Positions 6,467-63,525 of a stretch of 64,000 bases of DNA are shown here, piece by piece. The DNA is from a virus (Duplodnaviria > Heunggongvirae > Uroviricota > Caudoviricetes), in IMG/VR virus record IMGVR_UViG_3300028653_000011. One strand, 5' to 3'. The translations under genes and the position numbers were made by a program. Below the pieces are notes generated by a model, which saw nothing but the letters and a program-made list of their open reading frames with translations, searched no databases and was not told the origin of the DNA. Each line of letters begins with the position of its first letter. Positions within the stretch are counted from its first letter, which is position 1.

Positions 6467-7735
6467 GTGGGAGGTGCGAGCGGGCATCTTCGACATTTGC
6501 ACGACAACCTCGACCTGACGTTCGGGGAGTTGAAGGATGTGTTGTCGTCGGCGGCCGATGGCAAGCTCGAGCGCACCAGTGAAAAACTCGACGGGATCAA
6601 CCTAGTCTTCACGTGGGCGGGTGATCAACTGAAAGTAGCCCGCTCGGGCGGTGACATCAAGAGCGGCGGCATGGACGCTGTAGGTCTGGCGACCAAGTTT
6701 CAGGGGCGCGGCAACCTGGCCGACGCCTTCAACGGTGCCTTCAAGGTGCTCCGCGACGCGGTGGGCTCGCTGAGCGACGCCGTCCGAGCCAAGGTCTTCA
6801 ACGACGGCCGCACCTGGTACTCGATTGAGGTCATCTACTCCAAGAATCCCAACGTCATCAACTATGACGCCAACTACGTTGTCTTCCACGCCAGTCCCGT
6901 CTTCCACGTCTCACGCGCCGGCGAGGTCAAGAAGCTCGACTCTGCTCCCGGCGTGGCCTTGTTGGAGAAGCACGTCGACAACATGCAGCGTGCCCTGACG
7001 CAGCGTAGTTGGCAGGTCAGGGGCCCGGCTCTGGTTCGCCTCAAGAAGCTGAGCGACGGCAACGCCGTCAAACGTGCCTTCACCATGATCGGTCAGGCAC
7101 AGTCGATCGCCGGAGTGGGTGACGATGATACCCTCGGCGATTACCTCGCGGCGCGGATGACTGATGAAGTCGCGGGGCTCGACCTGCCACCCAAGGTCGC
7201 CAAAGCGGTGACGGCTCGGGCGGTGGGCAACCCGGGCGCACCGTCGTTGCTCAACCTGAAGAAGCTCGTCTCGCCCGACCAATATGCCGCCGTCAATCAC
7301 TTTGTCAAGGCATCGCCGGGCCTGCTGAAGAAGTTCATTGAGCCCATCGAGCGTGCCGTCCATGAGTTTGCGATTGAGGCCCTGCGTGGCATGCACTCCA
7401 CGCTCATCGGCAACAACGACGCCGAGGTGCAGCGCCTGCGGGGTGAGGTCGCCCGGGCCGTCAAGGCGATTGAAGCCAGCGGCGACGCCACGGCGATGGA
7501 CGTGTTGCAGAAGCAGATGACGAAGTTGGGTAGCATCGAGAATGTCAGCAGCGCGATGGAGGGCGTTGTCTTCACGTGGAAGGGCAACTCATATAAGTTC
7601 ACGGGTGGGTTTGCGCCTGCCAACCAGATCCTCGGCCTGTTCAAGTACGGGCGCAAGGGCGTAAAGATCCCCGTTCAAGAGGCCTATTTAAGGCACGCGG
7701 TCGCTCGGTTGGTCGCCAATGGGAGACACAGATGA
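6467..7735 (+). CDS. hypothetical protein (possible nucleotidyltransferase/ligase-like motifs)
   Basis: 422 aa. N-terminal EKLDGINLVF (KxDGxN-like) and C-terminal EGVVFTWKG...KFTGG resemble ligase motifs I and IV/V, but the spacing is atypical. Confidence 0.5.
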   Translation: MGGASGHLRHLHDNLDLTFGELKDVLSSAADGKLERTSEKLDGINLVFTWAGDQLKVARSGGDIKSGGMDAVGLATKFQGRGNLADAFNGAFKVLRDAVGSLSDAVRAKVFNDGRTWYSIEVIYSKNPNVINYDANYVVFHASPVFHVSRAGEVKKLDSAPGVALLEKHVDNMQRALTQRSWQVRGPALVRLKKLSDGNAVKRAFTMIGQAQSIAGVGDDDTLGDYLAARMTDEVAGLDLPPKVAKAVTARAVGNPGAPSLLNLKKLVSPDQYAAVNHFVKASPGLLKKFIEPIERAVHEFAIEALRGMHSTLIGNNDAEVQRLRGEVARAVKAIEASGDATAMDVLQKQMTKLGSIENVSSAMEGVVFTWKGNSYKFTGGFAPANQILGLFKYGRKGVKIPVQEAYLRHAVARLVANGRHR

Positions 7736-8541
7736 GGGTTAGGTTGGGCTTGTTGAGAGAGCAGATACGCGCCATTCTGACGGAGTCGCCCGCCTCAAAC
7801 GCATTTGAGAAGCACGTTGCATCAGCCGTAAAGGCCGCCCTTTCTGGGACAGGTGCCAAGATTGAACACGCTGGCTCTTCTGAGTACTCTGACATCCGCA
7901 TTGACATCCCGGGCATTGGGTCATCATTCCTCGAAGTGAAGCTGACGTCAGGTGACAACCTTGGCAACCCACGCCTGCAATACGATGGTAATCAGTGGAT
8001 CGTTGCCGGCGACAGTGGTTCGCCGCTGGCAGCCTATGCAGTAGAGTTCATGAATGAGTCACCCGAAGCGCAGGCCTTCATCAATGACCTCAAGGCGTTC
8101 CTGAAGACTGACACCGTCAGGTTACAAGGCAAGAAGCCCGGGTCGGTAACGTTGCCGCAGATCAAGGCGTTCTTAGCCAAACGACCCAACAAGAACATCG
8201 CTGAGCTTGACAGCGTCGATGCCGCCGCGTTGGCCACACAGCACTATGCCGTCGCCAAGAAGGAACCTGCTCACTACGTACAGGCAGGCGACGACTTCTA
8301 CCTCATGGGTAGTGCAGATCCATTGGACTTGAACCTGGTCAACGATGGGCAGATCCCCGTCCTCAGGGGCATGGGTCGGCTGGCGGTTCGCATTGCCGAT
8401 CGCAGCGCGCGCTATGAGGTACAAGTGTCAGTGAAGATGTGGAAGCACGATCCGAGCCCATTCTCGGCCATGCTGCCGACCTCTAAGGTCAATCCCTTCA
8501 CTGCACTGGCTAAGTCACTGAAGGCCCGCAAGCGCGGCTAA
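7732..8541 (+). CDS. leader-family hypothetical protein
   Basis: ATGA overlap with upstream gene. N-terminal MRVRLGLLREQIRAILTES. Confidence 0.55.
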   Translation: MRVRLGLLREQIRAILTESPASNAFEKHVASAVKAALSGTGAKIEHAGSSEYSDIRIDIPGIGSSFLEVKLTSGDNLGNPRLQYDGNQWIVAGDSGSPLAAYAVEFMNESPEAQAFINDLKAFLKTDTVRLQGKKPGSVTLPQIKAFLAKRPNKNIAELDSVDAAALATQHYAVAKKEPAHYVQAGDDFYLMGSADPLDLNLVNDGQIPVLRGMGRLAVRIADRSARYEVQVSVKMWKHDPSPFSAMLPTSKVNPFTALAKSLKARKRG

Positions 8542-10041: not shown

Positions 10042-10497
10042 ATGGACGACAAGAACAAGGTTCGCCGGAAGGCGACTTCATGTGGCGGTCTACCGTGGCG
10101 AGTTCACCTGGGTCGAGTGCAGGTGCTGTTAGTCAAGCAATTTTCACACAGTGACAACTGGGGCGTGCCTAAGGGTCACCTCAAACCCGGTGAATCGCTG
10201 GAGGACTGCGCACGGCGAGAAATTCGTGAGGAGACTGGCATCGACGTTGGGCTGACCGAGCGCCTGCCTGACATCACGACGGTGCACCGTGGTGAGGAAA
10301 AGACGGTGGTGCTGTGGCTAGCGCTGCCCACTGCCGACGTTGAACCCTATCACGACAACCCCGACAGTGAAGTCGCCGATGCGCGTTGGTTCAACATCGA
10401 TGCACTGCCCATGATTCACAACTACCAGCGCACCATTGTCAAACACGGCATCGAGGCGATCAAAGTTGATCTCAACAGCTACGTGCCATCGCCGTGA
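10042..10497 (+). CDS. NUDIX hydrolase
   Basis: Nudix box GHLKPGESLEDCARREIREETGI. Confidence 0.8.
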   Translation: MDDKNKVRRKATSCGGLPWRVHLGRVQVLLVKQFSHSDNWGVPKGHLKPGESLEDCARREIREETGIDVGLTERLPDITTVHRGEEKTVVLWLALPTADVEPYHDNPDSEVADARWFNIDALPMIHNYQRTIVKHGIEAIKVDLNSYVPSP

Positions 10498-10776: not shown

Positions 10777-11817
10777 ATGGCGTCCGACAAACTGCTACGT
10801 GAGTTCATCAGTGAGGTGGTGCTGCTCACTGAGGAGGGCGAAGGTGGGGGTGAATACGCTGACTTATCAATGGCAGATGCTACGGGCAGTCCCTACGGCA
10901 TGTCGTTCGGCTCCAACGACGACCTCTACAACACCTTCGTCAAACCCTTCACCGACGTGGTGGGCGTGGCCGCGGGCAAGACCAAGGCCCTGTCACAGAA
11001 GGGTCAAACCCTGGTACGCGTTGCCTTCGAGGCCGTGGCCACGACGCTGGTGCCCATCCTCCGCGACTCCTACGGCGAGATCTTCGAGAAGGAGAAAGAG
11101 GAACTCGACAAGATTCGTCGTGACTACCACGACGTCTTTCAGGCCACTTGGGATGCCTTCGAAGACCACGATGCGTTGCTGGCCGCATTCCTCCATGCGC
11201 CGGCGTCGTTCATCACGTCGCGATTGGCCAAGCAATCACCCAAGGTCGTCATCAAGATGATCAGCGTGCTGACGGGCGGCACCCTCGACACGTGGCTCGA
11301 TAAGGTGAAGAACGCCTTCGGTGTCGAGGGTGGCCCATCAGGTGCCAACAAGCCGGTGCACGGTGGTGACAGTGGGCCCATGGAGAGCACCCTGCATGAG
11401 GATGGGGGTAACCACCCACCCATTGAGCAGGTGCTGACCAGCGACAAGGTGAGGGCCCGTGTCGCCGATGCGCCGGTGACCAAGAAGTTGCAGCAACGTG
11501 GGACGGAGATCACGCGCGGCACCCTGGAGAAGGTCTACAAGCAGGCCAAGGGGGTGTTGGGTGCCAAGTCGCTGGAGCAATTGCAACAGTTGGTGCATAG
11601 ACCGCTCAAGGGCCTCGACAAGATGAAGGGCGTCCCACAACAGGAGCGTCAGGCGGCGGAACAGCAGATCTTGGCGGCGGCGAAAAAGTCGATGCGTGAA
11701 TTCTACACGAAAAACCTCGAGGGTCAGGTGAAGCAGGCGCTCGACCAGGGAGTGCCCGACGACTCGCCTTATATCAGTGACTACCGGCGCGTCATCAGCA
11801 AAATCAAAGCACTGTGA
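10777..11817 (+). CDS. leader-family hypothetical protein
   Basis: Internal ATG of track ORF 10705-11817. N-terminal MASDKLLREFISEVVLL closely parallels the NUDIX 24079 leader MASDRDLLRQLIREVL. Confidence 0.5.
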   Translation: MASDKLLREFISEVVLLTEEGEGGGEYADLSMADATGSPYGMSFGSNDDLYNTFVKPFTDVVGVAAGKTKALSQKGQTLVRVAFEAVATTLVPILRDSYGEIFEKEKEELDKIRRDYHDVFQATWDAFEDHDALLAAFLHAPASFITSRLAKQSPKVVIKMISVLTGGTLDTWLDKVKNAFGVEGGPSGANKPVHGGDSGPMESTLHEDGGNHPPIEQVLTSDKVRARVADAPVTKKLQQRGTEITRGTLEKVYKQAKGVLGAKSLEQLQQLVHRPLKGLDKMKGVPQQERQAAEQQILAAAKKSMREFYTKNLEGQVKQALDQGVPDDSPYISDYRRVISKIKAL

Positions 11818-12490: not shown

Positions 12491-12699
12491 ACCGCGGCAC
12501 CGCCTGCAATGACTGCATCAGGTGTGCAGAGATCAAGGTCGCCGCACGTGGGGTGCGCGCCACTCTTCTTGAACCTGAGTTGAATCGCATGTTCCTGTGT
12601 CCGACGTGTGGCAACAAGCGGTGTCCCAAGGCAACCTACCACGACAACAAGTGCACCGGCTCCAATGCGCCCGGACAGGAAGGCAGCGACTACAAATGA
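12487..12699 (+). CDS. small zinc-ribbon protein
   Basis: CNDCIRC ... CPTCGNKRC. ATGA-coupled on both sides. Confidence 0.45.
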   Translation: MNRGTACNDCIRCAEIKVAARGVRATLLEPELNRMFLCPTCGNKRCPKATYHDNKCTGSNAPGQEGSDYK

Positions 12700-14231
12700 G
12701 TGCCGATATTGAGTGGGATAAATCGGTGATCTTGAACGCTGACAATGAACATCTCCTTGCTTTGCCAGTCATGTCGTTCATCAAGGGATTGGTCGAGCGG
12801 TACGGCGCTAGCGTTGACACGTGTCTCGATGCCCGCAAGCACCGCAGCATCGTTGACTGCGACTTCGCTCGTTCACCCGAGGAGCTCGACTCATCATGGC
12901 GTGCGGCACCCCCACCTGCCGACCTCATCGATCGCCGCGTCGAGATCACCGGGCCGCCCACCCGCAAGGGCGTCATCAATGCTCTCAATTCGGGCGCTGA
13001 CGTCTTCATGGCCGACTTTGAGGACTCATGCTCACCGACGTGGGACAACCTGATCAGTGGTCAGGTCAATCTCTTCAATGCCGTTCGTCGCACCATTACC
13101 TACGACGATCCTACGACGGGCAAACACTACTCGCTCAATGACAAGCCAGCGGTGTTGATGGTCAGGCCCCGGGGCTGGCACCTCAAGGAGAAGCACGTCA
13201 GGCTCGATGGCAAGCCCGTGCCTGCGGCCCTGGTCGACTTCGGTCTCTATGTCTTCAACAATGCACACGAACTGTTGTCACGTGGGTCAGGCCCGTATCT
13301 GTACCTGCCCAAGATGGAGAGTCACCACGAGGCGAAGCTGTGGGACGATGTCTGTTCCTACGCAGAGCAGGTACTCAACCTGCCCATGGGCGCCATTCGC
13401 ACGACGTGCCTGATCGAGACGCTGCCTGCCGCCTTCTGTATGGACCGCATCATCTACGCCCTCCGCGACCGCATCGTGGGCCTCAACTGCGGGCGCTGGG
13501 ACTACATCTTCTCCTTCATCAAGAAGCGCCACGATGACCCGAGCGCGGTGTTACCCGATCGCTCGCTGTTGACGATGGACAAGGCATTCCTCAACGCCTA
13601 CGATGAGCTGTTGGTGCAGACGTGCCACAAGCGCGGCATCCACGCGATGGGCGGCATGGCGGCGCAGATCCCGATCAAGGGCAATGCCGAGGCCAATGAC
13701 GTCGCCATGGAGAAGGTACACACCGACAAGTTGCGTGAAGCAGCGATGGGCCACGACGGCACTTGGGTCGCCCACCCGGGTCTGATCCAGATCGCTCGTG
13801 AGGCCTTCAAGGACTGCGGGCCCAATCAGATCGATCGGCCACGCACCAATCGACCCATCACTCGCGACGAGCTGTTGTTGGTGCCGTCAGGTCCCTGCAC
13901 CGAGGAAGGCCTGCGCCACAACATCAGGGTTGGCATCCAATACCTCGAGGCGTGGTTGAGCGGCAATGGCTGCGTGCCCCTGTACAACCTGATGGAGGAC
14001 GCGGCGACGGCCGAGATCTCACGTGCCCAAATATGGCAGCAACTACACCACGGTGCGATCGTCGGCGGGCGCCCACTGACCTACGTCAGGTTGGCGGACA
14101 TCATCAGCCAAGAAACAATGCCACTGGTGGGCGCGCGGATCGACGATGCGATCAGGTTGTTCATGAAGGTTGCATGCGACCCGCACGAGTTCACCGACTT
14201 TCTGACGCTGCCCGCCTACGACATGCTGTAA
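12696..14231 (+). CDS. aceB: malate synthase A
   Basis: Collinear with E. coli AceB throughout (RRVEITGP, FMADFEDS, GLNCGRWDYIFS, MGGMAAQIP, GHDGTWVAHPGL, CVPLYNLMEDAATAEISR). ATG at 12696 overlaps the upstream stop. Confidence 0.9.
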   Translation: MSADIEWDKSVILNADNEHLLALPVMSFIKGLVERYGASVDTCLDARKHRSIVDCDFARSPEELDSSWRAAPPPADLIDRRVEITGPPTRKGVINALNSGADVFMADFEDSCSPTWDNLISGQVNLFNAVRRTITYDDPTTGKHYSLNDKPAVLMVRPRGWHLKEKHVRLDGKPVPAALVDFGLYVFNNAHELLSRGSGPYLYLPKMESHHEAKLWDDVCSYAEQVLNLPMGAIRTTCLIETLPAAFCMDRIIYALRDRIVGLNCGRWDYIFSFIKKRHDDPSAVLPDRSLLTMDKAFLNAYDELLVQTCHKRGIHAMGGMAAQIPIKGNAEANDVAMEKVHTDKLREAAMGHDGTWVAHPGLIQIAREAFKDCGPNQIDRPRTNRPITRDELLLVPSGPCTEEGLRHNIRVGIQYLEAWLSGNGCVPLYNLMEDAATAEISRAQIWQQLHHGAIVGGRPLTYVRLADIISQETMPLVGARIDDAIRLFMKVACDPHEFTDFLTLPAYDML

Positions 14232-14246
14232 ACAGAGAGGTGCGAC

Positions 14247-15629
14247 ATGGATGACATCAAACGACCCTACACTCCCGCTGACGTCAAGCGCCTGCAGGGC
14301 CGCACCCGAATCGTACACTCGCTGGCCGAGAATGGTGCCGGTCGATTACGTGCTATGATGGTGAACCAATCCGTGCGGGCGTTGGGAGCGCAGACTGGCA
14401 ACCAAGCGGTGCAGATGGTCAAGGCAGGATTGAAAGCCATATATGCGTCAGGTTGGCAAGTTGCCGCCGACGCCAACACGTCAGGCCAGACCTACCCAGA
14501 TCAGTCACTGTACCCCGTCGACAGCGTGCCCACCCTGGTCAGGCGCATCAACAATGCACTGCTCCGTGCCGAGCAGATCGATGCGATGGAAGAGGCAGAT
14601 GGCCAACGCAGCGAGAATCATCGTCACTGGTTAGCGCCCATCGTTGCAGATGCTGAGGCAGGCTTTGGCGGTCACCTCAACACCTATGAACTTGTCAAGG
14701 CGTTGATCGAGGCCGGTGCGGCAGGCATTCACCTCGAGGATCAGCTGTCGAGCGCGAAAAAATGCGGGCATTTAAATGGGAAAGTGCTCATCCCGACGTC
14801 TCAAGCGATCAACAACCTCGTCGCCGCCCGCCTCGCTGCCGACGTGCTCGAGGTGCCGACGGTCATCATTGCTCGCACCGATGCACTGAGTGCGCAATTG
14901 ATAACCAGTGATATTGACGAACGAGATCGCCAGTTCGTTGCACCAACTAGTCGCACTTCGGAAGGTTTCTACCACCTGACGGGCGATCCCATGCAGCGGA
15001 CGATCGCTCGTGGCCTCGCCTATGCGCCCTACGCCGACCTGCTGTGGTTCGAGACGTCAACGCCCGATTTGGCGCAAGCCAAGCAATTCGCTGAGGCGAT
15101 CCACGCACAGTTCCCGGGCAAGCAGTTGGCCTTCAATTGTTCGCCGTCGTTCAAGTGGCGCAAGCACCTGACGGACGATCAGATCGCCTCGTTTCAGGAT
15201 GACCTACACGCGATGGGTTATGTCTTCCTCTTTGTAACCCTCGCGGGTTGGCACGCCAATGCCAGCAGCGTCTTCGAACTGGCGCTCGATTATCACCAGC
15301 GTGGCATGGGTGCCTACGTCAAGTTGCAGGATCGGGAATTCACGCTCGAACAAGCGGGCTACACCGCCGTCAAGCACCAGCGCGAAGCCGGCACCTCATA
15401 CTTCGACGCGATCGTTAGTGTCATCACCGGCGGTACTTCGTCGACGTTAGCGATGAAGGGCTCGACTGAGGCCGAGCAGTTCTCTGAACATGCAACCCCG
15501 TACGGGGTAGGATTACCCTATGGCGAAGAAGTCGAAGAAGAAGCGGGAAAAGACGGTGGTGTGCACGGATGTCGGGCAAGCGAAGTTCGCGCCCCAGCAG
15601 ACGTACGCCCTGACGCTGACCCGGTTTGA
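14247..15629 (+). CDS. aceA: isocitrate lyase, with a ~45-aa C-terminal extension
   Basis: KKCGHLNGK catalytic motif, [22 protein letters not shown], ends ...GSTEAEQF like AceA. The frame then continues ~45 aa further and overlaps the next gene. Confidence 0.9.
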
Positions 15630-16574: not shown

Positions 16575-16895
16575 ATGAAGACGACAGTGGGCAAGTTGAA
16601 GCAGTTCATCACAGAAGCGATGGACATTCCGCAGTTCAAGTCGATCAAGGGGTTGTCACGCTTTGTACACAACAAACATGCACACGGTACCGTGGTGACT
16701 CGGGAAGCGATCGCCTTCACCAATCCTCCTCCCGAAGCAGTCAGGTTCACCGTCGGCGCTGGTTATTTGGTCGGTTGGAACACTGATGACCCACGACAAC
16801 GTAACATTGATTGGGAGCTCCACATCAATGAGCCGGGTGGGTTTACCGATGGACCACCTTGGGAATACAAGTGGGTGAAAGTGGGGACGGGATGA
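16575..16895 (+). CDS. leader-family small protein
   Basis: N-terminal MKTTVGKLKQFITEA. Confidence 0.55.
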   Translation: MKTTVGKLKQFITEAMDIPQFKSIKGLSRFVHNKHAHGTVVTREAIAFTNPPPEAVRFTVGAGYLVGWNTDDPRQRNIDWELHINEPGGFTDGPPWEYKWVKVGTG

Positions 16896-17155
16896 AGACG
16901 ACAGTCGGCAAGCTTCGTAACCTCTGTGCTGAGGCGGTCTCGGCGCACCCCGACTACTTGAAAAAGGAAGCGCTGCGTGAGGCCCTCCAACAAATCATCA
17001 CCACGTCGGTAGCATCAGGTGATGTAGCGACCCAAGAAAGGCTCGATGGCCTCTTCGGCGACCTATCGATGGCACTGAACGCCTTGAAAGGCGTTCCCTT
17101 TGACGTGTGGGTGAAGATGGCGACGAAAGCGACGAAGGTGAGGAAGTCCCGTTGA
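16892..17155 (+). CDS. leader-family small protein (paralog of 16575)
   Basis: ATGA-coupled. N-terminal MKTTVGKLRNLCAEA. Confidence 0.5.
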   Translation: MKTTVGKLRNLCAEAVSAHPDYLKKEALREALQQIITTSVASGDVATQERLDGLFGDLSMALNALKGVPFDVWVKMATKATKVRKSR

Positions 17156-20453: not shown

Positions 20454-20669
20454 ATGCGACAGTGGCAGCGTGCGATCGGCTGGTTATGGGCAGCGCCGTT
20501 GACGGCGTGTGGCCTGCTCTACGTCAACCTCTTCACCCTGTTGGGTTGGTACCGGCGCCAACAGAAGGTCATCGTCGACACCCTCTGGGTTGATACTTAT
20601 GAGGATGCGATTAAAACTCGGTACGTTGAAACGACTCATCAGGGAGGCTTCGATGGCATCTGCTGTTGA
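20454..20669 (+). CDS. small membrane protein; N-terminal TM helix paralogous to 21015
   Basis: WAAPLTACGLLYVNLFTLLGWYR shared at nucleotide and protein level with 21015. Possibly a truncated duplicate. Confidence 0.35.
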   Translation: MRQWQRAIGWLWAAPLTACGLLYVNLFTLLGWYRRQQKVIVDTLWVDTYEDAIKTRYVETTHQGGFDGICC

Positions 20670-20958
20670 TCTGTTGTCACAATGGGCAAAGAGATACGAT
20701 TTCGAACCTTCTTCGGGAAAAGAGTGTGAACGCTATCTCGAAGACATGGCAGAAACAGAAATTCCCAAAGTTTGTTTTTATGACAACAATAGCACAGTTC
20801 ATGAACCACCGATTGCTTGGGTTGCAGCTGATGATCGGATCATGATCGTCAGCGACGGAAGTGGTCCCACGGGCGTATTCTGTCGCGAAGTTTCGAAAGA
20901 CGAACTTGAAGCGGCACTTCAACCTGACGCGGCGCCAACTGACATCACTCCGGAGTGA
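20599..20958 (+). CDS. leader-family hypothetical protein
   Basis: Internal ATG of track ORF 20509-20958. N-terminal MRMRLKLGTLKRLIREAS. Confidence 0.4.
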   Translation: MRMRLKLGTLKRLIREASMASAVDLLSQWAKRYDFEPSSGKECERYLEDMAETEIPKVCFYDNNSTVHEPPIAWVAADDRIMIVSDGSGPTGVFCREVSKDELEAALQPDAAPTDITPE

Positions 20959-21556: not shown

Positions 21557-21808
21557 ATGGCCCGCATTGCCCTGACACCTGACCGCCTCAAGCACATCAT
21601 CAAGGAAGAGCTCGCACAGGCCCCCGTCGCAGGCGCGGGCATCGGCAAGCTACTGAGCGATCTCGTCGGCACCTTCGAGGCCAAGCTGAGCCAACAGTAC
21701 CCGGGTGACGTCGTCAAGCGCGAGGCCGCTGATCTCAAGACGCAGATCGAGGCGTTGCTCCGTGCCGCGGTGACCAAGGTCAAAACCGCACAGGGGAAGG
21801 CGTCGTGA
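21557..21808 (+). CDS. leader-family small protein
   Basis: MARIALTPDRLKHIIKEELAQA. 83 aa. Confidence 0.5.
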   Translation: MARIALTPDRLKHIIKEELAQAPVAGAGIGKLLSDLVGTFEAKLSQQYPGDVVKREAADLKTQIEALLRAAVTKVKTAQGKAS

Positions 21809-22395
21809 GGACGTCAGCTGCAGGCATACAATTTATAACGCATGAAGAAGGCGTCGTGCTCCACACTTACAATGATGTCGGTGGGAAAGCAACGATCGGA
21901 ATTGGCCACCTGCTCGGCCCGGGTGAGTCGTATCCCAACGGCATCACCCTTGCACAGGCACAGGCCATGCTCGCGAACGACCTTGCCCGGTTCGAGGCCG
22001 CCATCAGCGGCGGCGTCAAGGTGACGATCACCCAACACATGTTCGACGCGCTCGCCAGCTTTACGTACAACCTGGGCACCGGCGCACTCGCCTCCTCTAC
22101 ACTCCTCAAGCTCCTCAACAAGGGTGACTTCGCCGGTGCGGCCGCCCAATTTCCGGCCTGGGACAAGGTCGACGGCGTGCCCAATGCCGAGATCCTCGGC
22201 CGGCGCAAGCGTGAAGCTGCACTGTTCTTGACCCCCGATGCGGCCCACGTCGCTCCCCCGCCCGCGCCGCCTGTTCCCACCCCTCCCGTGCCGCCGAGTA
22301 TTCCTGCGGTCCCCGTGGCGCCTCCACCCGCGCCCACCAATGCATTCGCCGACTTCTTTGCGATGATCTTGAGACTGTTCACCGGAGGCAAGTGA
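21805..22395 (+). CDS. T4-type lysozyme (GH24 endolysin) with Pro-rich linker and C-terminal amphipathic helix
   Basis: EEG...D...TIGIGHLL catalytic region collinear with T4 lysozyme. C-terminus APPPAPPVPTPPVPP...AFADFFAMILRLFTGGK. Confidence 0.85.
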   Translation: MRTSAAGIQFITHEEGVVLHTYNDVGGKATIGIGHLLGPGESYPNGITLAQAQAMLANDLARFEAAISGGVKVTITQHMFDALASFTYNLGTGALASSTLLKLLNKGDFAGAAAQFPAWDKVDGVPNAEILGRRKREAALFLTPDAAHVAPPPAPPVPTPPVPPSIPAVPVAPPPAPTNAFADFFAMILRLFTGGK

Positions 22396-23255
22396 TGACG
22401 CAGACATACCGCAAGACGTGGCGACCTGATAGCACCCAACCACTGCCCGCAGGCCAAGCCGCATTCCACGACCTGCCACTCGGGGCGGCTAACCTCGCCT
22501 CGGTGCTGGCGGCGGGCGCTGCTGTGCCCAATCAGATCGTGGAACAGGGTGGCATCCTCGACCTCAGGCCCCTGTGCCCACCAATTGACAACCAGTACCA
22601 AGTGTCCGACTGCGTTGCCGATGCCACGTGTTCGGCGTTGGAGTTCTGTCAGATCCGCAATGGCCTGCCCTTCGTCAAGCTGTCACGCCTGTTCATGTAC
22701 TACAACGCTCGATTGCAGACGCAGGACACCGCCAACGATGCAGGCACCTACATCAGGTTGGCCTTTAGCACTCTCGCGTCGCTGGGCACCTGTCCTGAGT
22801 CCACGTGGGCCTATGACACCTCAATGATCTTCACCCGCCCGTCGTGGGAGAGCTACCGCGAGGCGTATCCCAACAAGGTCACCAACTTCTACTCGATCAG
22901 CCAGCTGTTGATCGCGGCGAACAACATCATCAATCCCAATTCGTTGACGGCCTCCATCAAGCAAGCACTGCAGGCGATCCACCCGGTCGTCTTCGGCATG
23001 ACCGTTGATGAAGGTTACGACAACACGGGTCGCGACGGCATGGTGGCGATGCCGGCATCGAAGCGCATCAGTCCCGGTGGCCACGCACAGATGATCTGTG
23101 GCTACAACGACAACCTACAGCGATGGATCGTCAAGAACAGCTGGGGCACTGGTTGGGGCGACGGGGGATACTGCTACGTGCCCTATGCCTACTTGGGTGC
23201 GTCCGGCGTCGACGACATCTGGGTGCCGACGCTGGCACCGGGCCAGCGGGCGTGA
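22392..23255 (+). CDS. papain-like cysteine peptidase (C1 family)
   Basis: GGHAQMICGY (His motif) and NSWGTGWGDGGYCYV (Asn-Ser-Trp motif), plus an upstream QxxxxDC region. Confidence 0.85.
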   Translation: MMTQTYRKTWRPDSTQPLPAGQAAFHDLPLGAANLASVLAAGAAVPNQIVEQGGILDLRPLCPPIDNQYQVSDCVADATCSALEFCQIRNGLPFVKLSRLFMYYNARLQTQDTANDAGTYIRLAFSTLASLGTCPESTWAYDTSMIFTRPSWESYREAYPNKVTNFYSISQLLIAANNIINPNSLTASIKQALQAIHPVVFGMTVDEGYDNTGRDGMVAMPASKRISPGGHAQMICGYNDNLQRWIVKNSWGTGWGDGGYCYVPYAYLGASGVDDIWVPTLAPGQRA

Positions 23256-23587
23256 CACACCTGCTGCGCACCTTCATCCACGAGGCATTGCTCCACGAGC
23301 TGCGCCGTGACCACAAGTTCATCACCCACCTGCGGACTTCTGGGTTGGGCGAGCCCGGGTCGAAGGAAGGCTTTGAAGCGCGACGACTGGCGGATGATTG
23401 GCTGCGCGACGTGGAATTAGAGCTGGGTCGGCCCCTGCGACCCGCTATCAAGGCAGGCGTCCGCAAGTTCGTCGAGCGGCGGTGGGCAGGCCTCCGCGCA
23501 CGTTTCAAGGGCGATGAACAGGCGGCGCAACAAACGCTTTCCAACTTGCTCAATACCAAGTACGTTGACCTGAGGACGGGAGACTAA
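23252..23587 (+). CDS. leader-family small protein (GTG start overlapping upstream stop)
   Basis: GTGA overlap. N-terminal (M)THLLRTFIHEALLHELRR. Confidence 0.45.
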   Translation: MTHLLRTFIHEALLHELRRDHKFITHLRTSGLGEPGSKEGFEARRLADDWLRDVELELGRPLRPAIKAGVRKFVERRWAGLRARFKGDEQAAQQTLSNLLNTKYVDLRTGD

Positions 23588-23588: not shown

Positions 23589-24089
23589 ATGGGCATCAAG
23601 ATCTTGCGACACTACACTAGCAGTGCACGGCCTCTCATACAGATCGCGGCGTGGGCAGCCGTCGCCGGCACGGTGACGCTGGCACTGGCCACGTGCACGT
23701 CGTGTCACAGCACCGGGGTGCTCATCGTGCCCACCAACCCGCCGACCATCACCGATCAATCGGCATGTGCACAGGCGTGTGGCAACCTCGTGGCACTGGG
23801 TTGCGTGGAAGGCACGCCCATCGACACTCACCAGACGTGTAAGGTCGACGCCGACTGCTTGGGAGTGACAGGCGTCCACGATGAATATCAGACGTGCTCC
23901 GTCGCCTTCACCTGCATGGTCACCTGCGTCAACTTCTGCACCGCGACGGAGAACACCGGCGTGTGGCTCGACCCCACGTGTGCGGCCAAGATCACTTCGT
24001 GTGACCAACTGAGCACCTGTCCGGGCCCACAGACGGCGGGCACCAGCTGCACCGGCCCGGGCTGCAAGGTGGCGCCGAGTGGCAAGTGA
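23589..24089 (+). CDS. Cys-rich lipoprotein
   Basis: Signal peptide plus lipobox (LALATC). More than 20 Cys in 166 aa. Confidence 0.55.
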   Translation: MGIKILRHYTSSARPLIQIAAWAAVAGTVTLALATCTSCHSTGVLIVPTNPPTITDQSACAQACGNLVALGCVEGTPIDTHQTCKVDADCLGVTGVHDEYQTCSVAFTCMVTCVNFCTATENTGVWLDPTCAAKITSCDQLSTCPGPQTAGTSCTGPGCKVAPSGK

Positions 24090-24651
24090 CCGTGACCTGT
24101 TGCGGCAATTGATCCGCGAAGTTCTCACCGACTTCAACACCAAGACGCTCGGCAAGGACGGCGTTGCGGGCAACGTCTTCAACACGGGCCTGACGACGGG
24201 CGGTGCGGGTGTGTTGAAGCAGAACGGCAACATCCTCGATGATGAGGATGCCGACGAACAGCACGACGAACAGAGCACACAGCGGGCGGCGTGCTGTTTA
24301 ATCGTGGGCCACGATGGGACAGTGCTGTGCGTGTCACGGAAGGATGATCCCACCGCTTGGGGCATGCCGGGAGGGAAGGTTGATCCCGGCGAAGACGACG
24401 AGACTGCTGCGGGTCGAGAGTTGACGGAAGAAGTGGGCCTGACAGCGACGGCGCTGCACCCGGTCTTCACTATGCGCGACAGGCAGGGGTTCACAACGAC
24501 AACATTTGCCTGTGAAGTTGACGGCCAGATCAACACCAGCGAATCGGGCGTCATCAGGTGGGTGCACCCGAGCCTGTTGTGCAATGATGCCCACTCGCCG
24601 TTCGCTGCGTATAATCGGGCCCTGTTTGCCGAGCTGGGAGTGAAAACTTGA
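24079..24651 (+). CDS. NUDIX hydrolase with leader-family N-terminus
   Basis: Nudix box GGKVDPGEDDETAAGRELTEEVGL. N-terminal MASDRDLLRQLIREVL. Confidence 0.8.
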   Translation: MASDRDLLRQLIREVLTDFNTKTLGKDGVAGNVFNTGLTTGGAGVLKQNGNILDDEDADEQHDEQSTQRAACCLIVGHDGTVLCVSRKDDPTAWGMPGGKVDPGEDDETAAGRELTEEVGLTATALHPVFTMRDRQGFTTTTFACEVDGQINTSESGVIRWVHPSLLCNDAHSPFAAYNRALFAELGVKT

Positions 24652-27723: not shown

Positions 27724-28139
27724 GGATACCACCCGTTTCACCCTACGGCCTCATTCAGGAGACGCTGTGGCCCGACGAATGGTTGATCCTCGTCACCGGC
27801 ACCATGCTCAATTGCACCACGCGCAAGCAGGTTGAACGGGTGCTGCCCGACTTTCGTTGTCGGTGGCCCACCCCTCAGGTCTTTGTCACCGCCTCATACG
27901 ACGACGTCTTTGAGTTGATCAAGCCACTGGGTTTCGGCAACAGGCGCACGGGCAACCTGTTGAAGATGACGCGTGCCTACCTGATGACCGACTGGCACCA
28001 CGCCCGTGAACTGCCCGGCGTCGGCGAGTACGGTGCACGCAGTTGGGAGATCTTCTGCTTGGGCGTGTTGGGCACGACGCCACCGAAGGATCATGCCTTG
28101 CTACAGTATTGGGACTGGGCGGTGACCTTACCGAGCTGA
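27720..28139 (+). CDS. HhH-GPD DNA glycosylase, MBD4 glycosylase-domain-like
   Basis: WLILVTGTMLNCTTRKQV ... LPGVGEYGARSWEIFC ... PKDHALLQYWDW parallels the MBD4 catalytic domain (LLIATIFLNRT ... LHGIGKYGNDSYRIFC ... PEDHKLNKYHDW). Confidence 0.6.
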   Translation: MRIPPVSPYGLIQETLWPDEWLILVTGTMLNCTTRKQVERVLPDFRCRWPTPQVFVTASYDDVFELIKPLGFGNRRTGNLLKMTRAYLMTDWHHARELPGVGEYGARSWEIFCLGVLGTTPPKDHALLQYWDWAVTLPS

Positions 28140-29003
28140 CAACGGGCCGATGATCTTGTTGTGCTCGAGGAAGCCACGAATGGTGTCGTGGCAGGTGAAC
28201 AGCGAGATGTCAGGCACGTTCCTCTTGAAGCTGTCGGCGGTGCCGATGAGGTCGCCTGCAGCATTGAAGGCCGGGCCACCCGAGTTGCCGAAGAAGACGG
28301 CCGCTGACACCTGCACGTAGTCGTGAGGTTTACCTTCATTGTTGGTGTACTCTGACAGGTGCCCCGACACGTAACCGTGGGTGTATGTCCACCACATGCC
28401 CGCCGGCATGCCGATGATGTGAACCTCGTCGCCAGGTGAAGGTGTGGTCGACATCAGGTGAGCAATGGGATGATCACCAGGATCCTTGACGCGGATCAAC
28501 GCTAGGTCATTGTACATGTCGACGGCGATGCACGCGCTGTCATGGTACGTTTGTTGTGAGTCGGCGATGTCGCCGCGCGTTGAGTATATCACGGGTTGAC
28601 CCACCGGCGTCCACTCCGTCAACTGAGGAGGCGGTGCCGTCGTCACTCCGTTGATCTGGTCGATCATTTGTTTCAGGATCGCCGTCGCGTCGAGCGGTGG
28701 CTTAGCGTCGGCGGGCTTGCCGATGTCATCAATGCAGTGTTCGGCCGTCAGGATGACGTTGGCACTGACCCACACGCCGGTGCAGTAGGAGTGCAGCTTG
28801 GCACCGCGCCCTGCGTTGATCGGCTCGATGACGTTGCCCTCACTGTCGGCGTAGTGTACCAGGGCGACGGTCTCATACTCCAGTTGGGCGATCATCTCGG
28901 CATGTGTCAATGGAGGTGGTGTAGCAATGGTGATGTAGTGGTAGGCATGTGTACAGCAAGCGGGTAGAAAGGCAATGCCCAACCAGGCCAACAACTTCTT
29001 CAT
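28128..29003 (-). CDS. trypsin-like serine protease (S1 family) lipoprotein
   Basis: Signal plus lipobox (FLPACC). Catalytic LTAEHC and GNSGGP motifs. Confidence 0.8.
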   Translation of the reverse strand: MKKLLAWLGIAFLPACCTHAYHYITIATPPPLTHAEMIAQLEYETVALVHYADSEGNVIEPINAGRGAKLHSYCTGVWVSANVILTAEHCIDDIGKPADAKPPLDATAILKQMIDQINGVTTAPPPQLTEWTPVGQPVIYSTRGDIADSQQTYHDSACIAVDMYNDLALIRVKDPGDHPIAHLMSTTPSPGDEVHIIGMPAGMWWTYTHGYVSGHLSEYTNNEGKPHDYVQVSAAVFFGNSGGPAFNAAGDLIGTADSFKRNVPDISLFTCHDTIRGFLEHNKIIGPLSAR

Positions 29004-42894: not shown

Positions 42895-42912
42895 GCGCGC
42901 CTATCTATAGCA

Positions 42913-43179
42913 ATGAGGCTCACCCTACGTCGTCTACGACGATTGATACGAGAATTCGGTGTTGACGACACACTACGGAATGATGCTGGCTTCTTCATGG
43001 CAGGCGGCCTGAGTTCAGCGCACCGTGACCGTGAGAATACGTTGATGGATCCACCGCCCGGGTTGGGCAGTGACGCAGAAGAGACAGATGACGCAGAGAA
43101 GGATGGAGACATTGAAGACAAATCACAGTTCGCAGTCAGGGTTGACGACAAACGAGGCGGGCCGGGACGATCGGCTTGA
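42913..43179 (+). CDS. leader-family small protein
   Basis: MRLTLRRLRRLIREFG N-terminus, acidic C-terminus. Confidence 0.45.
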   Translation: MRLTLRRLRRLIREFGVDDTLRNDAGFFMAGGLSSAHRDRENTLMDPPPGLGSDAEETDDAEKDGDIEDKSQFAVRVDDKRGGPGRSA

Positions 43180-43180
43180 A

Positions 43181-43375
43181 ATGCAGGGTAAGGTCGAAGA
43201 GTGCATGCCGGGCACGCTGTTCCGGGTGCGCTGCGACAACGGGCACCTCGTCCTGTGTACCTTGAGCGGCAAGTTGAGGCAGAACCGCATCAGAATACTG
43301 GCCGGTGACGCGGTGACGTGCGAGTGCAGTCCGTATGATGTCTCGAGGGGTCGCATCACCTGGAGACGTACGTAA
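43181..43375 (+). CDS. infA: translation initiation factor IF-1 (bacterial type, S1-like fold)
   Basis: MQGKVEECMPGTLFRVRCDNGHLVLCTLSGKLRQNRIRILAGDAVTCECSPYDVSRGRITWR is collinear with E. coli IF1. An in-frame N-terminal extension to 43070 is possible. Confidence 0.85.
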   Translation: MQGKVEECMPGTLFRVRCDNGHLVLCTLSGKLRQNRIRILAGDAVTCECSPYDVSRGRITWRRT

Positions 43376-43893: not shown

Positions 43894-43946
43894 GGGAGAA
43901 CGCGGTTGAGCCGCGACCTAATTAGAGTGTTGGGTAGGACGAGCAC

Positions 43947-44330
43947 ATGAAGACAACACTACGTCGCTTGAAGCAGGTCATCCGAGAAGCCGCGGGTGAA
44001 GAGCACCTCAAGTCTTACGAGAACGTCACAGTGGGTGACTGGTACAAGGAACGTCCTGAACCTCGCTTTCGTGGTGCACAGCCCGAAGCAGCCGACGTCG
44101 CACAGTTGGTCGACCTGTATTGGCGTGACTTTGGTGGCACTCACGGCAAGTTGTTGATGGCGACGCGACGTTTTCCCAGCGGGCACAGCACCAACAGCAG
44201 GTACGACGTGTGGATGGAGAAGTTTGAGGGCCCGGCGACGCCCGAAGAGGTCACCCAAGCGAAGGCACACGGTGATGCCAAACAGCGTCACATGGCTCGC
44301 ACGATCGACACCTCACGCGAGGGCACCTGA
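43947..44330 (+). CDS. leader-family protein
   Basis: MKTTLRRLKQVIREAAGEE. TAGAGT promoter-like hexamer upstream. Confidence 0.55.
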   Translation: MKTTLRRLKQVIREAAGEEHLKSYENVTVGDWYKERPEPRFRGAQPEAADVAQLVDLYWRDFGGTHGKLLMATRRFPSGHSTNSRYDVWMEKFEGPATPEEVTQAKAHGDAKQRHMARTIDTSREGT

Positions 44331-45266: not shown

Positions 45267-46052
45267 TCAATACGTGTAGACGTCATCGCCGATCGGGAAC
45301 AGTTTACGTTCAAAGCGTGACTCGCCACTGTGAACGGCACGCGCCTTGACGCTGACCAACCTCTCATCGGGCAGCACATAGGCCCACAGCTCGCCGCCAA
45401 AGCAACAACCACCGTCGAGGCCCACCGCTTTCGGGGTGATCAATGGCCTATTGAGGACGCTGTGACCGAAGAAGATGCGCTCAGGCCCGTCCCAAAAGTG
45501 GTGCCAAAAGCGCCAACCTTCGTTGGGAGGAATGCGACTCGGCCACATCGACTTGTCGTTGATCCTCATCTGACCATCGGCACCAAAGTCGTAGGGACAG
45601 ATGCACTGTATGTGGGTCAAGTGACGCACGGACTGGCGTTCGATGGGCACCCCTGGGAAGACGCCGGCATGGACGGCGACGGCGTTGAACTCTGGTAGAC
45701 GCAGGTACAGTGGCAACCGCCTGAAGTAGTCGTAGTGCTCGGGACGGAGCTGTGACCGGGTGACGACGTGAGACGGGGGTAGCTGACTCGGCAGCTTACC
45801 AGTGCGTGCCAGTACGTCTTCATGATCGAGGTGCCGGTGTTCATGGTTGCCCAGGATGCAGGCGGGTTTGCCTTGTCGCGCTTCGATCCGCATCGCCAGG
45901 TCAACGCACTTGCCGCTCTCGGGACCTCGGTCGACGGTATCACCGAGGAAGATGACCCAGTCTTCAGGACGCGCCTTGCACTTGTCGAGCAGTTCTTGTT
46001 GTTCTGCATAACAACCTTGAACATCACCCACTAGAATTGTGCGCATTGCCAT
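45267..46052 (-). CDS. metallophosphoesterase (PPP family; ApaH / lambda-phosphatase-like)
   Basis: GDVQGC, LGDTVDRGP, GNHE motifs. Confidence 0.8.
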   Translation of the reverse strand: MAMRTILVGDVQGCYAEQQELLDKCKARPEDWVIFLGDTVDRGPESGKCVDLAMRIEARQGKPACILGNHEHRHLDHEDVLARTGKLPSQLPPSHVVTRSQLRPEHYDYFRRLPLYLRLPEFNAVAVHAGVFPGVPIERQSVRHLTHIQCICPYDFGADGQMRINDKSMWPSRIPPNEGWRFWHHFWDGPERIFFGHSVLNRPLITPKAVGLDGGCCFGGELWAYVLPDERLVSVKARAVHSGESRFERKLFPIGDDVYTY

Positions 46053-46894
46053 TTGAACCCATATGCTGTTTCTTTTTCACCAGTCAAACACGCCTTAATT
46101 GTATCTTTATGGGCACCAATACCCAGCTCTTTTAGAGCTAACACAGCGTGTTTAATTGATGAAAAGGTGGCGACGATATTGCCATTTAATGATAATTGAT
46201 CAACTGCAATCCATGATGATTTCGTTTTCACTTTTGGAACATGAACGTCATCACCCGCCACTCTCCAATAAAAACCATGACTCAACATTACATGACCTAT
46301 TTTAACAGGAATCACTCGTTGGGTGGCTTTTGTTAATCCTTGTTCACTTAACCATATTTGTACTGCGCTTCGAGAATCGTGTAATTCTAAAAACTGTCCA
46401 TCAGTTGACCAACGTTCAATGCGTACTTTTTGTTGATTAGCACCTTGAGATCTATTTTGAATTTCTTCATCAGTGTACGGTGCTTTACGCCAACCAACGT
46501 GACTTCTATATTTATGTGCTTGACGAATTTTCTCATTTGTTTCAGGCGTTGGTTTCTTATGCGTTTGTGGCTTTCTCGTATAGAAGTCTTGTCCACCTAC
46601 AGTAAGATTGTAACCATATCCACCCATTCTGATGTTAGTATTTAATTTTGCGATCCAATAACGTTCACGATCATTGAGTTGTTCATCAGAACATTCTTCA
46701 ATGACTTCATATTTGAAATTTTCAAATCCATGTTTGATTAACGCACCCAAAATTGGTCTGCCCAATTTATTGTACTTTTTATGATGCGTTGCACCGTATT
46801 TGTAATTGCGCCAATGTATTTCTGGATCGACTTTTGATTGACCAACATACAGCTTATCATTGAGAATATTAAGAATCTTATAAATGTGACTCAT
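46031..46894 (-). CDS. GIY-YIG homing endonuclease
   Basis: IYKILNILNDKLYVGQS ... ERYWIAKLNT ... YN. The basic C-terminal half is a probable DNA-binding region. Confidence 0.85.
   Translation of the reverse strand: MSHIYKILNILNDKLYVGQSKVDPEIHWRNYKYGATHHKKYNKLGRPILGALIKHGFENFKYEVIEECSDEQLNDRERYWIAKLNTNIRMGGYGYNLTVGGQDFYTRKPQTHKKPTPETNEKIRQAHKYRSHVGWRKAPYTDEEIQNRSQGANQQKVRIERWSTDGQFLELHDSRSAVQIWLSEQGLTKATQRVIPVKIGHVMLSHGFYWRVAGDDVHVPKVKTKSSWIAVDQLSLNGNIVATFSSIKHAVLALKELGIGAHKDTIKACLTGEKETAYGFKWQCAQF
46031..46894 (-). mobile_element. free-standing homing-endonuclease gene in a low-GC island
   Basis: Marked drop in GC (~40% by eye) confined to this ORF, against ~60% flanks. Confidence 0.6.
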
Positions 46895-48937: not shown

Positions 48938-48988
48938 ACGCAACGTGCCTAATTATTGACCATGAGGGTCAGGTTAGGCACGTTGCGT
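48938..48988. other. perfect 15-bp inverted repeat (hairpin) enclosing the start codon of the 48962 gene
   Basis: ACGCAACGTGCCTAA - 21-nt loop containing ATG 48962 - TTAGGCACGTTGCGT. Confidence 0.7.
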
Positions 48989-49276
48989 CGTTACTTGCAC
49001 GAGGCGTTGTTGGCCGAAGTCTGGCCCGGGCAACCTTATGGCCGCAACACGTTAAGTCCTGACATCAATAACCGTGAGCAAATTGGTGCGCTCACCGCAA
49101 AAGCTCTCGACACAGTTGACGACCCAGATGGTTTACCCGATCACCTGAAGGAGCCCCTCGTTTCCCGAGAGGACTGTGAAGGGCCAGTGCCGCCCACCGC
49201 CGAGCCCGTGACAATCCACAGTGATCCATTTGCGAGGGACTTCTCGCCGGCACCGACAGCTGGCATCAATCGCTAA
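48962..49276 (+). CDS. leader-family protein
   Basis: MRVRLGTLRRYLHEALLAEV (alternative TTG start at 48956). Confidence 0.5.
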   Translation: MRVRLGTLRRYLHEALLAEVWPGQPYGRNTLSPDINNREQIGALTAKALDTVDDPDGLPDHLKEPLVSREDCEGPVPPTAEPVTIHSDPFARDFSPAPTAGINR

Positions 49277-49609
49277 TCACTTCGCCAACTTGTCGAACAA
49301 CGGCAAGTCACCATTCTTGGTGATGCACTTGTCCTCATAGGGTGCCCACACCCGCCTGTACAACTCCGTCGCCACGTTGGTCAACACGCCCGACACTGTG
49401 GCCACGACGTGGTACCTGACCACACCGAACCTCACGTTGATGACCTGCATCACGAGCCTCGTGATGGTGTAATTGAGCACCCCCGCGAAGTCAGCGCTGT
49501 CGAACGGAGGACCGTCAGCGCCGGCGACCTCCACTACTACACCCGCTAGGTTGTCGATCAACGCGTCAAGTGGTGCTCGCTGTTCCTGCTTGATGTAGGG
49601 CATGACCAA
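49277..49609 (-). CDS. hypothetical protein
   Basis: 110-aa ORF, convergent with upstream gene. Confidence 0.4.
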   Translation of the reverse strand: MVMPYIKQEQRAPLDALIDNLAGVVVEVAGADGPPFDSADFAGVLNYTITRLVMQVINVRFGVVRYHVVATVSGVLTNVATELYRRVWAPYEDKCITKNGDLPLFDKLAK

Positions 49610-49633
49610 TCATCACCCACGTGCACACGGTGT

Positions 49634-49900
49634 TCACTCGGTGACGATCCGCCTGATCCAACCCAACGAACCCGTGTGCCAGATCACCGTGGGCCCGGGT
49701 CCCAGCAACTGATACATGTACCAGCCACCCACCGTTGCCATCTTATAGTCACGCGCCAACAGCAACCACGGTACCGCCCGATCGATGCCGGCGTTCGGAT
49801 CTATGGAGAAGATGGTCCACCCATCGCCGTTCGGATTGGCGATAAAGAAGAAGAATGTCCCAACCTCGATGTTAGCGGGGGAAAATTCACGATCACGCAT
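49634..49900 (-). CDS. hypothetical protein
   Basis: 88-aa ORF with C-terminal GSLGWIRRIV. Confidence 0.4.
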   Translation of the reverse strand: MRDREFSPANIEVGTFFFFIANPNGDGWTIFSIDPNAGIDRAVPWLLLARDYKMATVGGWYMYQLLGPGPTVIWHTGSLGWIRRIVTE

Positions 49901-50120
49901 TGAATGCCATCATTGTTGACTTGCACTCATAGTCGGTGTAGTGACGTAGTTTACACTCGTCAGTGAAGACCGTGACGGTAGCCTTTGCGAGGTTGCCCAC
50001 AGATCTGTCAGTGAACGGCTCAACACCGATGACCAGCGCGGTGATCCACTCGATGTTGGAGGCAGAGCTCTGCAAGCTCTGCAACATGTCGCCCGGTTTC
50101 AGGTTCTTTGCCGACCTCAC
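49893..50120 (-). CDS. PGD-family small protein
   Basis: LKPGDMLQSLQSS ... ALVIGVEP. Confidence 0.4.
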   Translation of the reverse strand: MRSAKNLKPGDMLQSLQSSASNIEWITALVIGVEPFTDRSVGNLAKATVTVFTDECKLRHYTDYECKSTMMAFNA

Positions 50121-50329
50121 TTGACAACCTCACACCATGTGCCGATATAGGCGTAACTATATGCCTCAACCTTGCCATTGTCAACCACAATGGTCACCCT
50201 ATCATCAAAACTATTGACGTCAGGGTCATCGGGCACCGCAATGACGAAGGCGAAGTGCCATGGCACCAAGTCGCCTTTACCACGGTAGTGTATCCGACGC
50301 AGGAGATTACCTGGCACGGGCAGCATCAT
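50117..50329 (-). CDS. PGD-family small protein
   Basis: PVPGNLLRRIHYRG ... AFVIAVPDD. Confidence 0.4.
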   Translation of the reverse strand: MMLPVPGNLLRRIHYRGKGDLVPWHFAFVIAVPDDPDVNSFDDRVTIVVDNGKVEAYSYAYIGTWCEVVK

Positions 50330-50980: not shown

Positions 50981-51005
50981 CCTCAGATCTTACACCACGC
51001 TCAGG

Positions 51006-51353: not shown

Positions 51354-51362
51354 TGCATCACC

Positions 51363-51782: not shown

Positions 51783-51864
51783 ACCAGCGCGCCGGGTGCG
51801 ATGTCACGAGCCCCTTGAAGCGCGGCGCACTTCGGCTCATGCGCCACAATCAACGCAAACTGGT

Positions 51865-52623: not shown

Positions 52624-52629
52624 CGCGCA

Positions 52630-53658: not shown

Positions 53659-53662
53659 TGCA

Positions 53663-53908: not shown

Positions 53909-53936
53909 GAAGTGCTTTCGGACTGAGTGTAGCTCA

Positions 53937-57191: not shown

Positions 57192-57222
57192 TGCAATCTC
57201 CTTCGCAGCAGTTCCAACCTAT

Positions 57223-60752: not shown

Positions 60753-60756
60753 AATC

Positions 60757-63523: not shown

Positions 63524-63525
63524 TA

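Follow-up and report, generated by a model that had tools for sequence, protein, structure and literature searches.

In a 64-kb stretch of DNA from a Caudoviricetes virus (IMG/VR record IMGVR_UViG_3300028653_000011; the whole stretch is referred to below as the window), 12 genes begin with a common N-terminal segment of 11–18 residues, which we call the leader. We consider it likely, though well short of certain, that the leader is a longer and basic form of the capsid-targeting and processing propeptide known from phage T4. The proteins that carry it would then probably be packed into the phage head and injected together with the DNA. Judging from their sequences, the tagged set appears to consist of fast-evolving, mostly orphan small proteins together with a NUDIX hydrolase and a possible helix–turn–helix (HTH) protein.

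The register shared by the leaders, with P1 the residue before the predicted cut and P1′ the residue after it, is hydrophobic (P7), Arg/Lys (P6), any residue, hydrophobic (P4), Ile/Val/Leu (P3), any residue, Glu (P1), followed usually by Ala (P1′). Its carriers in the window, named here by their start positions, are genes 658, 7732, 10777, 16575, 16892, 20599, 21557, 23252, 24079, 42913, 43947 and 48962. In all 12 the register begins 4–11 residues past the start and P1 is Glu; P3 is Ile, Val, Leu or Cys and P4 is Phe, Leu, Ile, Val, Met or Tyr in every case. Leu occupies P7 in 11 leaders and Ile in one, while P1′ is Ala in eight, with Val, Glu, Phe or Ser in the other four. Often a second hydrophobic-x-Glu site follows a few residues beyond the first. 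The initial annotation had listed at least 13 genes with a shared leader; translation reproduced the N-termini that it quoted and 12 of the genes stood, while 34746 (MKTTQQSDVIEQ...) proved to be out of register and was rejected. An extra leader gene, L001:7234 (VKLRVGDLKRILVEA), lies directly upstream of the window.

Written strictly as L[RK]x[FLVIMY][ILVCM]xE[AVFEIL], the pattern had 11 matches in the six frames of the 64 kb, all 11 situated 4–10 residues past the start of a plus-strand open reading frame (ORF) and none internal. The chance expectation, obtained by shuffling residues within the 131 called ORFs, was 0.28 matches per ∼20,000 amino acids. With P1′ left free, 16 six-frame matches were found, 12 of them at the N-termini of plus-strand genes; it is this relaxation that brings in gene 7732 (MRVRLGLLREQIRAILTE↓S; here and below the arrow marks the predicted cut).

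The same leader residues are encoded by differing codons from gene to gene; thus, the leader is conserved at the level of the peptide and not of the DNA, and selection acts on the peptide. Past residue 22 the proteins are unrelated, as had been claimed: when the first 22 residues were removed from 13 leader proteins, all-against-all BLASTP gave no significant similarity (best E-value 0.048 in a 13-sequence database). For nine of the 12 leader proteins neither Pfam nor PHROG gave a match, and a profile search with the 42-residue N-termini against a collection of 5.8 billion proteins returned 22 candidates, none of which scored. We also checked whether the motif occurs equally on cytoplasmic enzymes, an observation that the initial annotation had named as contrary to its prediction. 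About 18 annotated metabolic and replication enzymes of the window and its flank have no leader, nor has a second NUDIX gene at 10042–10497.

The T4 capsid-targeting sequence (CTS) is the textbook example of a peptide by which any protein can be brought into a phage head, and it is already in use for protein delivery. The resemblance of the leader to this sequence, pointed out earlier, is borne out by the T4 record and by an alignment anchored at the Glu. In the record, the internal proteins IPII and IPIII begin with MKTYQEFIAE↓A, gp24 with MAKINELLRE↓S, gp22 with MLKEQLIAE↓A and gp67 with MEGLIE↓A; in the alignment, P7, P4, P3 and P1 of the window leaders fall on residues Y4, F7, I8 and E10 of T4 IPIII. 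According to a review of the T4 work, targeting goes mainly by residues 4 and 7 and processing by residues 8 and 10, the protease gp21 cleaves behind L/I-X-E, and T4-like phages in general may use the targeting sequence to bring diverse proteins into the head (PMC9026906). The likeness to the CTS and to the propeptides of IPI/IPII/IPIII, gp22, gp24 and gp67 thus extends to the N-terminal position, the spacing of the four key residues and the Glu-Ala junction. In addition, in T4 as in the window, the tagged proteins are unrelated to one another and evolve fast, and their genes lie dispersed among accessory genes, away from the head module. It is the strict N-terminal placement, the conservation at the peptide level and the match to the T4 register that argue for capsid targeting. 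There are differences as well: P7 is Tyr in T4 and Leu in the window leaders, the second hydrophobic-x-Glu site is frequent here unlike in T4, and the carriers, known from sequence alone, number 12 in the 64 kb and ∼30 in the huge-phage genome LR756508 versus a handful in T4, those of the window including a NUDIX enzyme.

Conservation in relatives points in the same direction. In two syntenic IMG/VR relatives (GC 54% and 41%) with orthologues ∼40–60% identical, the leader is retained on the orthologous genes and the linker behind it is variable. A scan with an epimerase that neighbours the window genes as query brought up 55 loci on contigs of up to 369 kb (GC 28–62%); the loci sharing genes with the window (GC 34–62%) mostly have N-terminal leaders, e.g. 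MKITVNQLRRIIKEE, MKIRVGELRRLVREA and MRFRISELRQLISEA. The leader persists in 37 orthologues of 658 and in 42 orthologues of L001:7234, at 24–56% identity and genome GC of 34–62%. In the 658 family the Arg at P6 is 96% conserved and the following 12 residues only 16–48%. Such a pattern is what one would expect of a leader under purifying selection.

We connect the leader with a T4-type head because its bearers among the relatives have S77 protease, Gp23 capsid and T4-type portal modules, with leader genes near the protease. Microcystis phage Mel-JY01 and two uncultured huge phages encode distant homologues of the 422-aa protein at 6467–7735, and in Mel-JY01 the gene concerned adjoins genes for terminase, portal, prohead protease and 'T4-like' capsid; the portion of Mel-JY01 examined contained no clear leader. 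The whole genome of LR756508 (484 kb) encodes a terminase, a portal and a protease each bearing an intein, a hyper-acidic scaffold and a capsid protein of the Gp23 family (PF07068), the first four homologous to those of Mel-JY01. In this genome 32–34 genes have an N-terminal leader (e.g. MRLSERKLRRIVKEE and MKIKEKKLRKIINEE), a 17-fold N-terminal enrichment, and 27 of 32 N-terminal matches fall within the 24% of the genome that carries the head and tail genes. Leader genes are located there just before the portal gene, just before the protease gene and, five in a row, after the protease gene. Precomputed annotation of L025, a 363.8-kb JGI contig, contains Portal_T4, Peptidase_S77 and Gp23, with leader-like N-termini around the protease; in the IMG/VR contig L086 (53% GC) three leader genes directly flank the Peptidase_S77 gene. 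Both L086 and Mel-JY01 have Peptidase_S77 and Portal_T4.

In a comparison of 61 distinct head modules, the leader pattern was matched in 25–39% of cases by the ORFs one or two places before and after the protease (positions −2, −1, +1 and +2). Every leader-bearing relative in which a head module was visible had Peptidase_S77. The S77 proteases of the relatives are 29–34% identical to T4 gp21, an invariant Q-L-I-x-E-A stands in the capsid proteins of the clade at the T4 gp23 cleavage site (FLTE↓A), and the scaffolds begin with MxxxLLKxAIAD. As a separate observation, the inserts in the LR756508 portal (145760–149923) and S77 prohead protease (156474–158204; L017/L018) are in frame and intein-like (Hint, LAGLIDADG-type), and according to Pfam the L025 portal likewise carries an intein.

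Several observations weigh against capsid targeting. Hidden Markov models made from T4 and clade proteins found neither a prohead protease nor a capsid, portal or terminase gene in the 84 kb made up of the window and its 10-kb flanks. It is thus through distant relatives that the leader is tied to a T4-type head, and those in which a head module is visible have only about five further genes in common with the window region. Degenerate and GC-biased DNA patterns for the T4-like capsid and core protein, run against IMG/VR and JGI contigs, in part hit unrelated DNA, and among the matches listed for the GC-biased ones there was no GC-rich member of the clade. Further searches for head genes were negative too: with capsid proteins of LR756508 and L086 as queries, no 359-kb contig was among the best 120; IMG/VR scans with capsid alignments found AT-rich relatives only; amino-acid composition did not single out GC-rich capsid proteins; the 10 kb upstream of the epimerase in the 55 relatives contained no head genes; and the epimerase loci and capsid loci had no contig overlap at the nucleotide level. 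The leader genes of the window lie among metabolic genes, outside any head module. The leader itself exceeds the 10 residues of its T4 counterpart in length and is net basic (Arg/Lys at P6), whereas the T4 peptide is net acidic. Its Glu is not invariant, being shifted in 32% of the 658 orthologues and replaced by Gln in the 16892 orthologue of L010, a syntenic relative. Single-sequence AlphaFold models of 24079 and 43947 had pLDDT values of 36 and 47, too low for use. Finally, in AT-rich relatives the leader pattern also fits a conserved helix at the N-terminus of the terminase, so that the background is non-negligible.

With regard to this last point, the large terminase of many AT-rich relatives (L082–L161, L285–L360) begins with MSKNLKDIIKEEY..., and the presumable counterpart of this helix in T4 gp17 is internal and conserved. 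The match calls for caution in any prediction made from the motif alone.

Among other explanations the one that survives best, although we regard it as unlikely, is that the leader is an N-terminal amphipathic helix that is never cleaved and serves one shared interaction unrelated to the capsid; its partner could be a common phage or host protein, DNA, a membrane surface, another copy of itself or the phage chaperonin. The motif is indeed helix-like, with heptad-style repeats such as LLxE 4–8 residues on; the low-confidence models draw a helix at residues 4–16 and 4–23; a GroEL is encoded in the window; and the similar helix of the relatives' terminases belongs to a protein that is not packaged. 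Still, an uncleaved helix would leave unexplained the near-invariant Glu followed by Ala and the occurrence of the same motif at the T4-equivalent cut site of the capsid protein. Nor would it account for the match to four functionally mapped T4 positions or for the way in which the leader genes of relatives gather about the S77 protease.

Less probable still is a pro-peptide cut by a protease encoded in the window itself, either a papain-like C1 peptidase (22392–23255) or a trypsin-fold peptidase (28128–29003, minus strand), so that proteins would be activated or released in the cytoplasm. Both peptidases are at hand, leader gene 23252 starts in an overlap with the stop of the C1 gene, and some trypsin-fold enzymes are Glu-specific. 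However, neither peptidase has a homologue in LR756508, the bearer of more than 30 leader genes; the protease that accompanies the leader throughout the relatives examined is of the S77 type.

Least of all do we credit a nucleotide-level constraint at gene starts (translation initiation or promoter-proximal sequence) or simple paralogy: several genes do begin with MKT or MR, the promoter-like element CCTAWYTA stands just upstream of five genes and the adjacent genes 16575 and 16892 both have MKTTVGKL, but synonymous codons vary freely at conserved residues, which rules out a DNA-level motif, the protein bodies are unrelated, which rules out paralogy, and the motif is kept from 34% to 62% GC. 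No conserved RNA structure or sequence was apparent in the aligned leader sequences.

If the leader is a capsid-targeting propeptide, as we favour, the following steps can be envisaged. The leader would fold as a short amphipathic helix, one face of which presents Leu (P7), the hydrophobic P4 residue and Ile/Val/Leu (P3); this face would dock the protein on the scaffolding core during prohead assembly, and the Arg/Lys of the leader would favour binding to a very acidic scaffold, acidity that is seen in the relatives. A prohead protease of the gp21 family (Peptidase_S77), predicted to be encoded elsewhere in the genome of the window phage, would cut after the Glu, usually before Ala, and free the mature protein inside the capsid, from which it would exit along with the DNA when a host is infected. 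All of these steps, from docking and cleavage to packaging and ejection, are inferred here. One could go further and propose that the leader is an address label readable from sequence, which by itself identifies the packed and DNA-co-delivered proteins of a T4-related clade of huge phages, with a basic variant docking on an acidic scaffold; for this broader proposal we see the arguments as evenly balanced. What is new with respect to T4 is the longer basic leader with its invariant Leu (replaced only in 7732) and Arg/Lys, the many more genes that carry it and the large uncultivated clade in which it is found; the principle itself is known.

Other systems offer more distant parallels. In the giant phages phiKZ, 201phi2-1 and SPN3US many head-internal proteins, head and ejection proteins among them, are cut after Glu by a gp21-related protease (gp175 or gp245, S/A-X-E), and their propeptides hold redundant sites (PMC9026906). 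These propeptides are long, have no common leader and have a small residue at P3, whereas the leader of the window is short and defined, with hydrophobic P3 and P4. Freshwater huge phages encoding bS21, together with Mel-JY01 and LR756508, show the kind of head module seen in the leader-bearing relatives, with terminase, portal, prohead protease, bS21 and capsid interspersed with conserved hypothetical genes; in the part of the published account drawn on here, the genes between head genes are treated as hypothetical and a shared leader is not mentioned (Chen et al. 2022, PMC9723584). The window phage differs from this group in being GC-rich (59%) and in having few genes in common with it. An analogy could be made to the cargo-loading peptides of encapsulins and to scaffold-mediated loading of HK97-fold shells, where a short transferable peptide also brings unrelated cargo inside; these peptides are usually C-terminal, have another sequence and are not cut by a Glu-specific protease, and the parallel should be taken as analogy only. 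In literature joining capsid targeting with giant phages we found no account of a leader of this kind.

All 12 leader genes of the window lie on the plus strand. Gene 658 (658–1878, 406 aa; leader 658–705, MTTIVTDDALREMVRE↓A) had no match in a tblastn search of 50,697 phage records. Its product has a possible HTH at residues ∼206–240. The description of this protein as sigma-region-4-like is at best tentative: sub-threshold matches to Pfam Sigma70_r4 were seen in six of 25 orthologues (best E-value 7e-4), while the protein itself had no match above the gathering score (18.2 bits, cut-off 25.7), and a PDB profile search produced nothing relevant. The 658 family also has an internal leader-like motif at residues ∼118–135, VEExIRxxIRKxLxE (core E-x3-R-x3-R-K-x-L-x-E, ∼120–133). 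In an alignment of 25 sequences this motif is 88–100% conserved, exceeding the N-terminal leader, with E120 and R124 invariant, which suggests a second cleavage site and, with it, a possible loss of the ∼135-residue N-terminal part.

Gene 7732 (7732–8541, 269 aa; leader 7732–7785, sequence given above) differs from the others in its Ile at P7 and Ser at P1′, and its product has no Pfam or PHROG match. Gene 10777 (10777–11817, 346 aa; leader 10777–10815, MASDKLLREFISE↓V) has a second site, LLTE, six residues on; its L010 orthologue retains MSTERLLREYVRE↓V. Genes 16575 (16575–16895, 106 aa; leader 16575–16616, MKTTVGKLKQFITE↓A) and 16892 (16892–17155, 87 aa; leader 16892–16933, MKTTVGKLRNLCAE↓A) are joined by an ATGA overlap of the start of the second with the stop of the first. 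Then follow 20599 (20599–20958, 119 aa; leader 20599–20646, MRMRLKLGTLKRLIRE↓A) and 21557 (21557–21808, 83 aa; leader 21557–21607, MARIALTPDRLKHIIKE↓E). Gene 23252 (23252–23587, 111 aa; leader 23252–23284, M/VTHLLRTFIHE↓A, then LLHE) is one of two genes for which a GTG start was inferred. The set ends with 42913 (42913–43179, 88 aa; leader 42913–42954, MRLTLRRLRRLIRE↓F), 43947 (43947–44330, 127 aa; leader 43947–43988, MKTTLRRLKQVIRE↓A) and 48962 (48962–49276, 104 aa; leader 48962–49003, MRVRLGTLRRYLHE↓A, then LLAE). The GC content at third codon positions (GC3) of 20599 (0.44) and 42913 (0.51) is far below the ∼0.75 typical of the window, as expected if these genes, leader included, were recently acquired from a relative of lower GC.

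The other gene with an inferred GTG start is 24079 (24079–24651, 190 aa; leader 24079–24120, M/VASDRDLLRQLIRE↓V), which had been called a NUDIX enzyme and does encode a NUDIX hydrolase domain (PF00293, E-value 7e-18) at residues 68–173. The domain is preceded by a 67-residue N-terminal extension, with a linker of ∼50 residues between leader and domain. The protein also matches the NUDIX-bearing stretch (profile positions 474–588) of a PHROG annotated as portal protein (phrog_15528, E-value 4e-11); in some phages a NUDIX domain would seem to be fused to the portal. In the T4 record the NUDIX gene nudE adjoins ipII and ipIII.

Upstream of several leader genes we found the element CCTAWYTA, present five times versus 0.71 expected (none of 100 shuffles reached five) and always on the plus strand. 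The copies at 7683–7690, 42900–42907, 43917–43924 and 48948–48955 lie upstream of leader genes, the first of them upstream of 7732, and the copy at 263–270 precedes the gene at 290–661, which is directly followed by 658; the distance to the leader genes, or to the gene ahead of 658, is 5–45 nt. A variant, CCTATTTC, occurs at 21514. From its distribution, CCTAWYTA could be a promoter class for leader genes.

Exact protein matches place the window at approximately positions 86,001–150,000 of the 359,321-bp ENA contig ERZ27245402 k141_2233850, and the same genes are present in an independent 359,342-bp JGI assembly (3300031240 Ga0265320_10000004). The window has a GC content of 56–62% and no tRNA genes, and no close relative of it was found among the 50,697 phage records. 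Its genes are those of a huge phage and include many auxiliary ones: GroEL, 5′-3′ exonuclease, AAA ATPase, a UDPGP-like protein, CN hydrolase, pterin-4a-carbinolamine dehydratase, EamA, Fpg, SPFH, TANGO2, M24 aminopeptidase, papain-like peptidase, trypsin-fold peptidase, GIY-YIG endonuclease, IF-1, malate synthase and isocitrate lyase. Thymidylate synthase, thymidine kinase, dCMP deaminase, CCA-adding enzyme and superoxide dismutase are encoded in the left flank.

Malate synthase (PF01274, E-value 1e-102) followed by isocitrate lyase (PF00463, E-value 1e-101) makes up a complete glyoxylate shunt at 12597–15629, with ∼69% nucleotide identity to enterobacterial aceB and aceA. The syntenic relative L010 has no such shunt, which suggests an insertion peculiar to the window lineage. 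The IF-1 homologue (43070–43375; PF01176, E-value 2e-23) is among the few window genes found also in LR756508. A GIY-YIG endonuclease gene (46031–46894, minus strand) with GC3 of 0.27 sits within an island of 48% GC and is probably a mobile homing endonuclease; weak homologues of its product adjoin capsid genes in relatives. The peptidases number three in all, the C1 and trypsin-fold enzymes mentioned above and an M24 methionine aminopeptidase (51865–52623, minus strand). From ∼49 kb onwards (49277–64000) the genes turn to the minus strand, are uniformly 60–140 aa long, have no leader and almost no family matches; this stretch of small genes looks like an early-gene block.

The finding amounts to a leader recognisably homologous to, yet distinct from, that of T4, present on dozens of orphan genes in an uncultivated clade of phages of 160–480 kb; it suggests that the T4 loading principle is old and widespread, well beyond the T-even phages. 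The candidate cargo includes such unusual members as a NUDIX enzyme and a possible DNA-binding protein or transcription regulator. If the assignment is true, many hypothetical genes would receive their first functional label, as packaged and probably injected, metagenomic sequence could by itself serve to predict which proteins a phage injects, and the tag might be put to use again for loading cargo.

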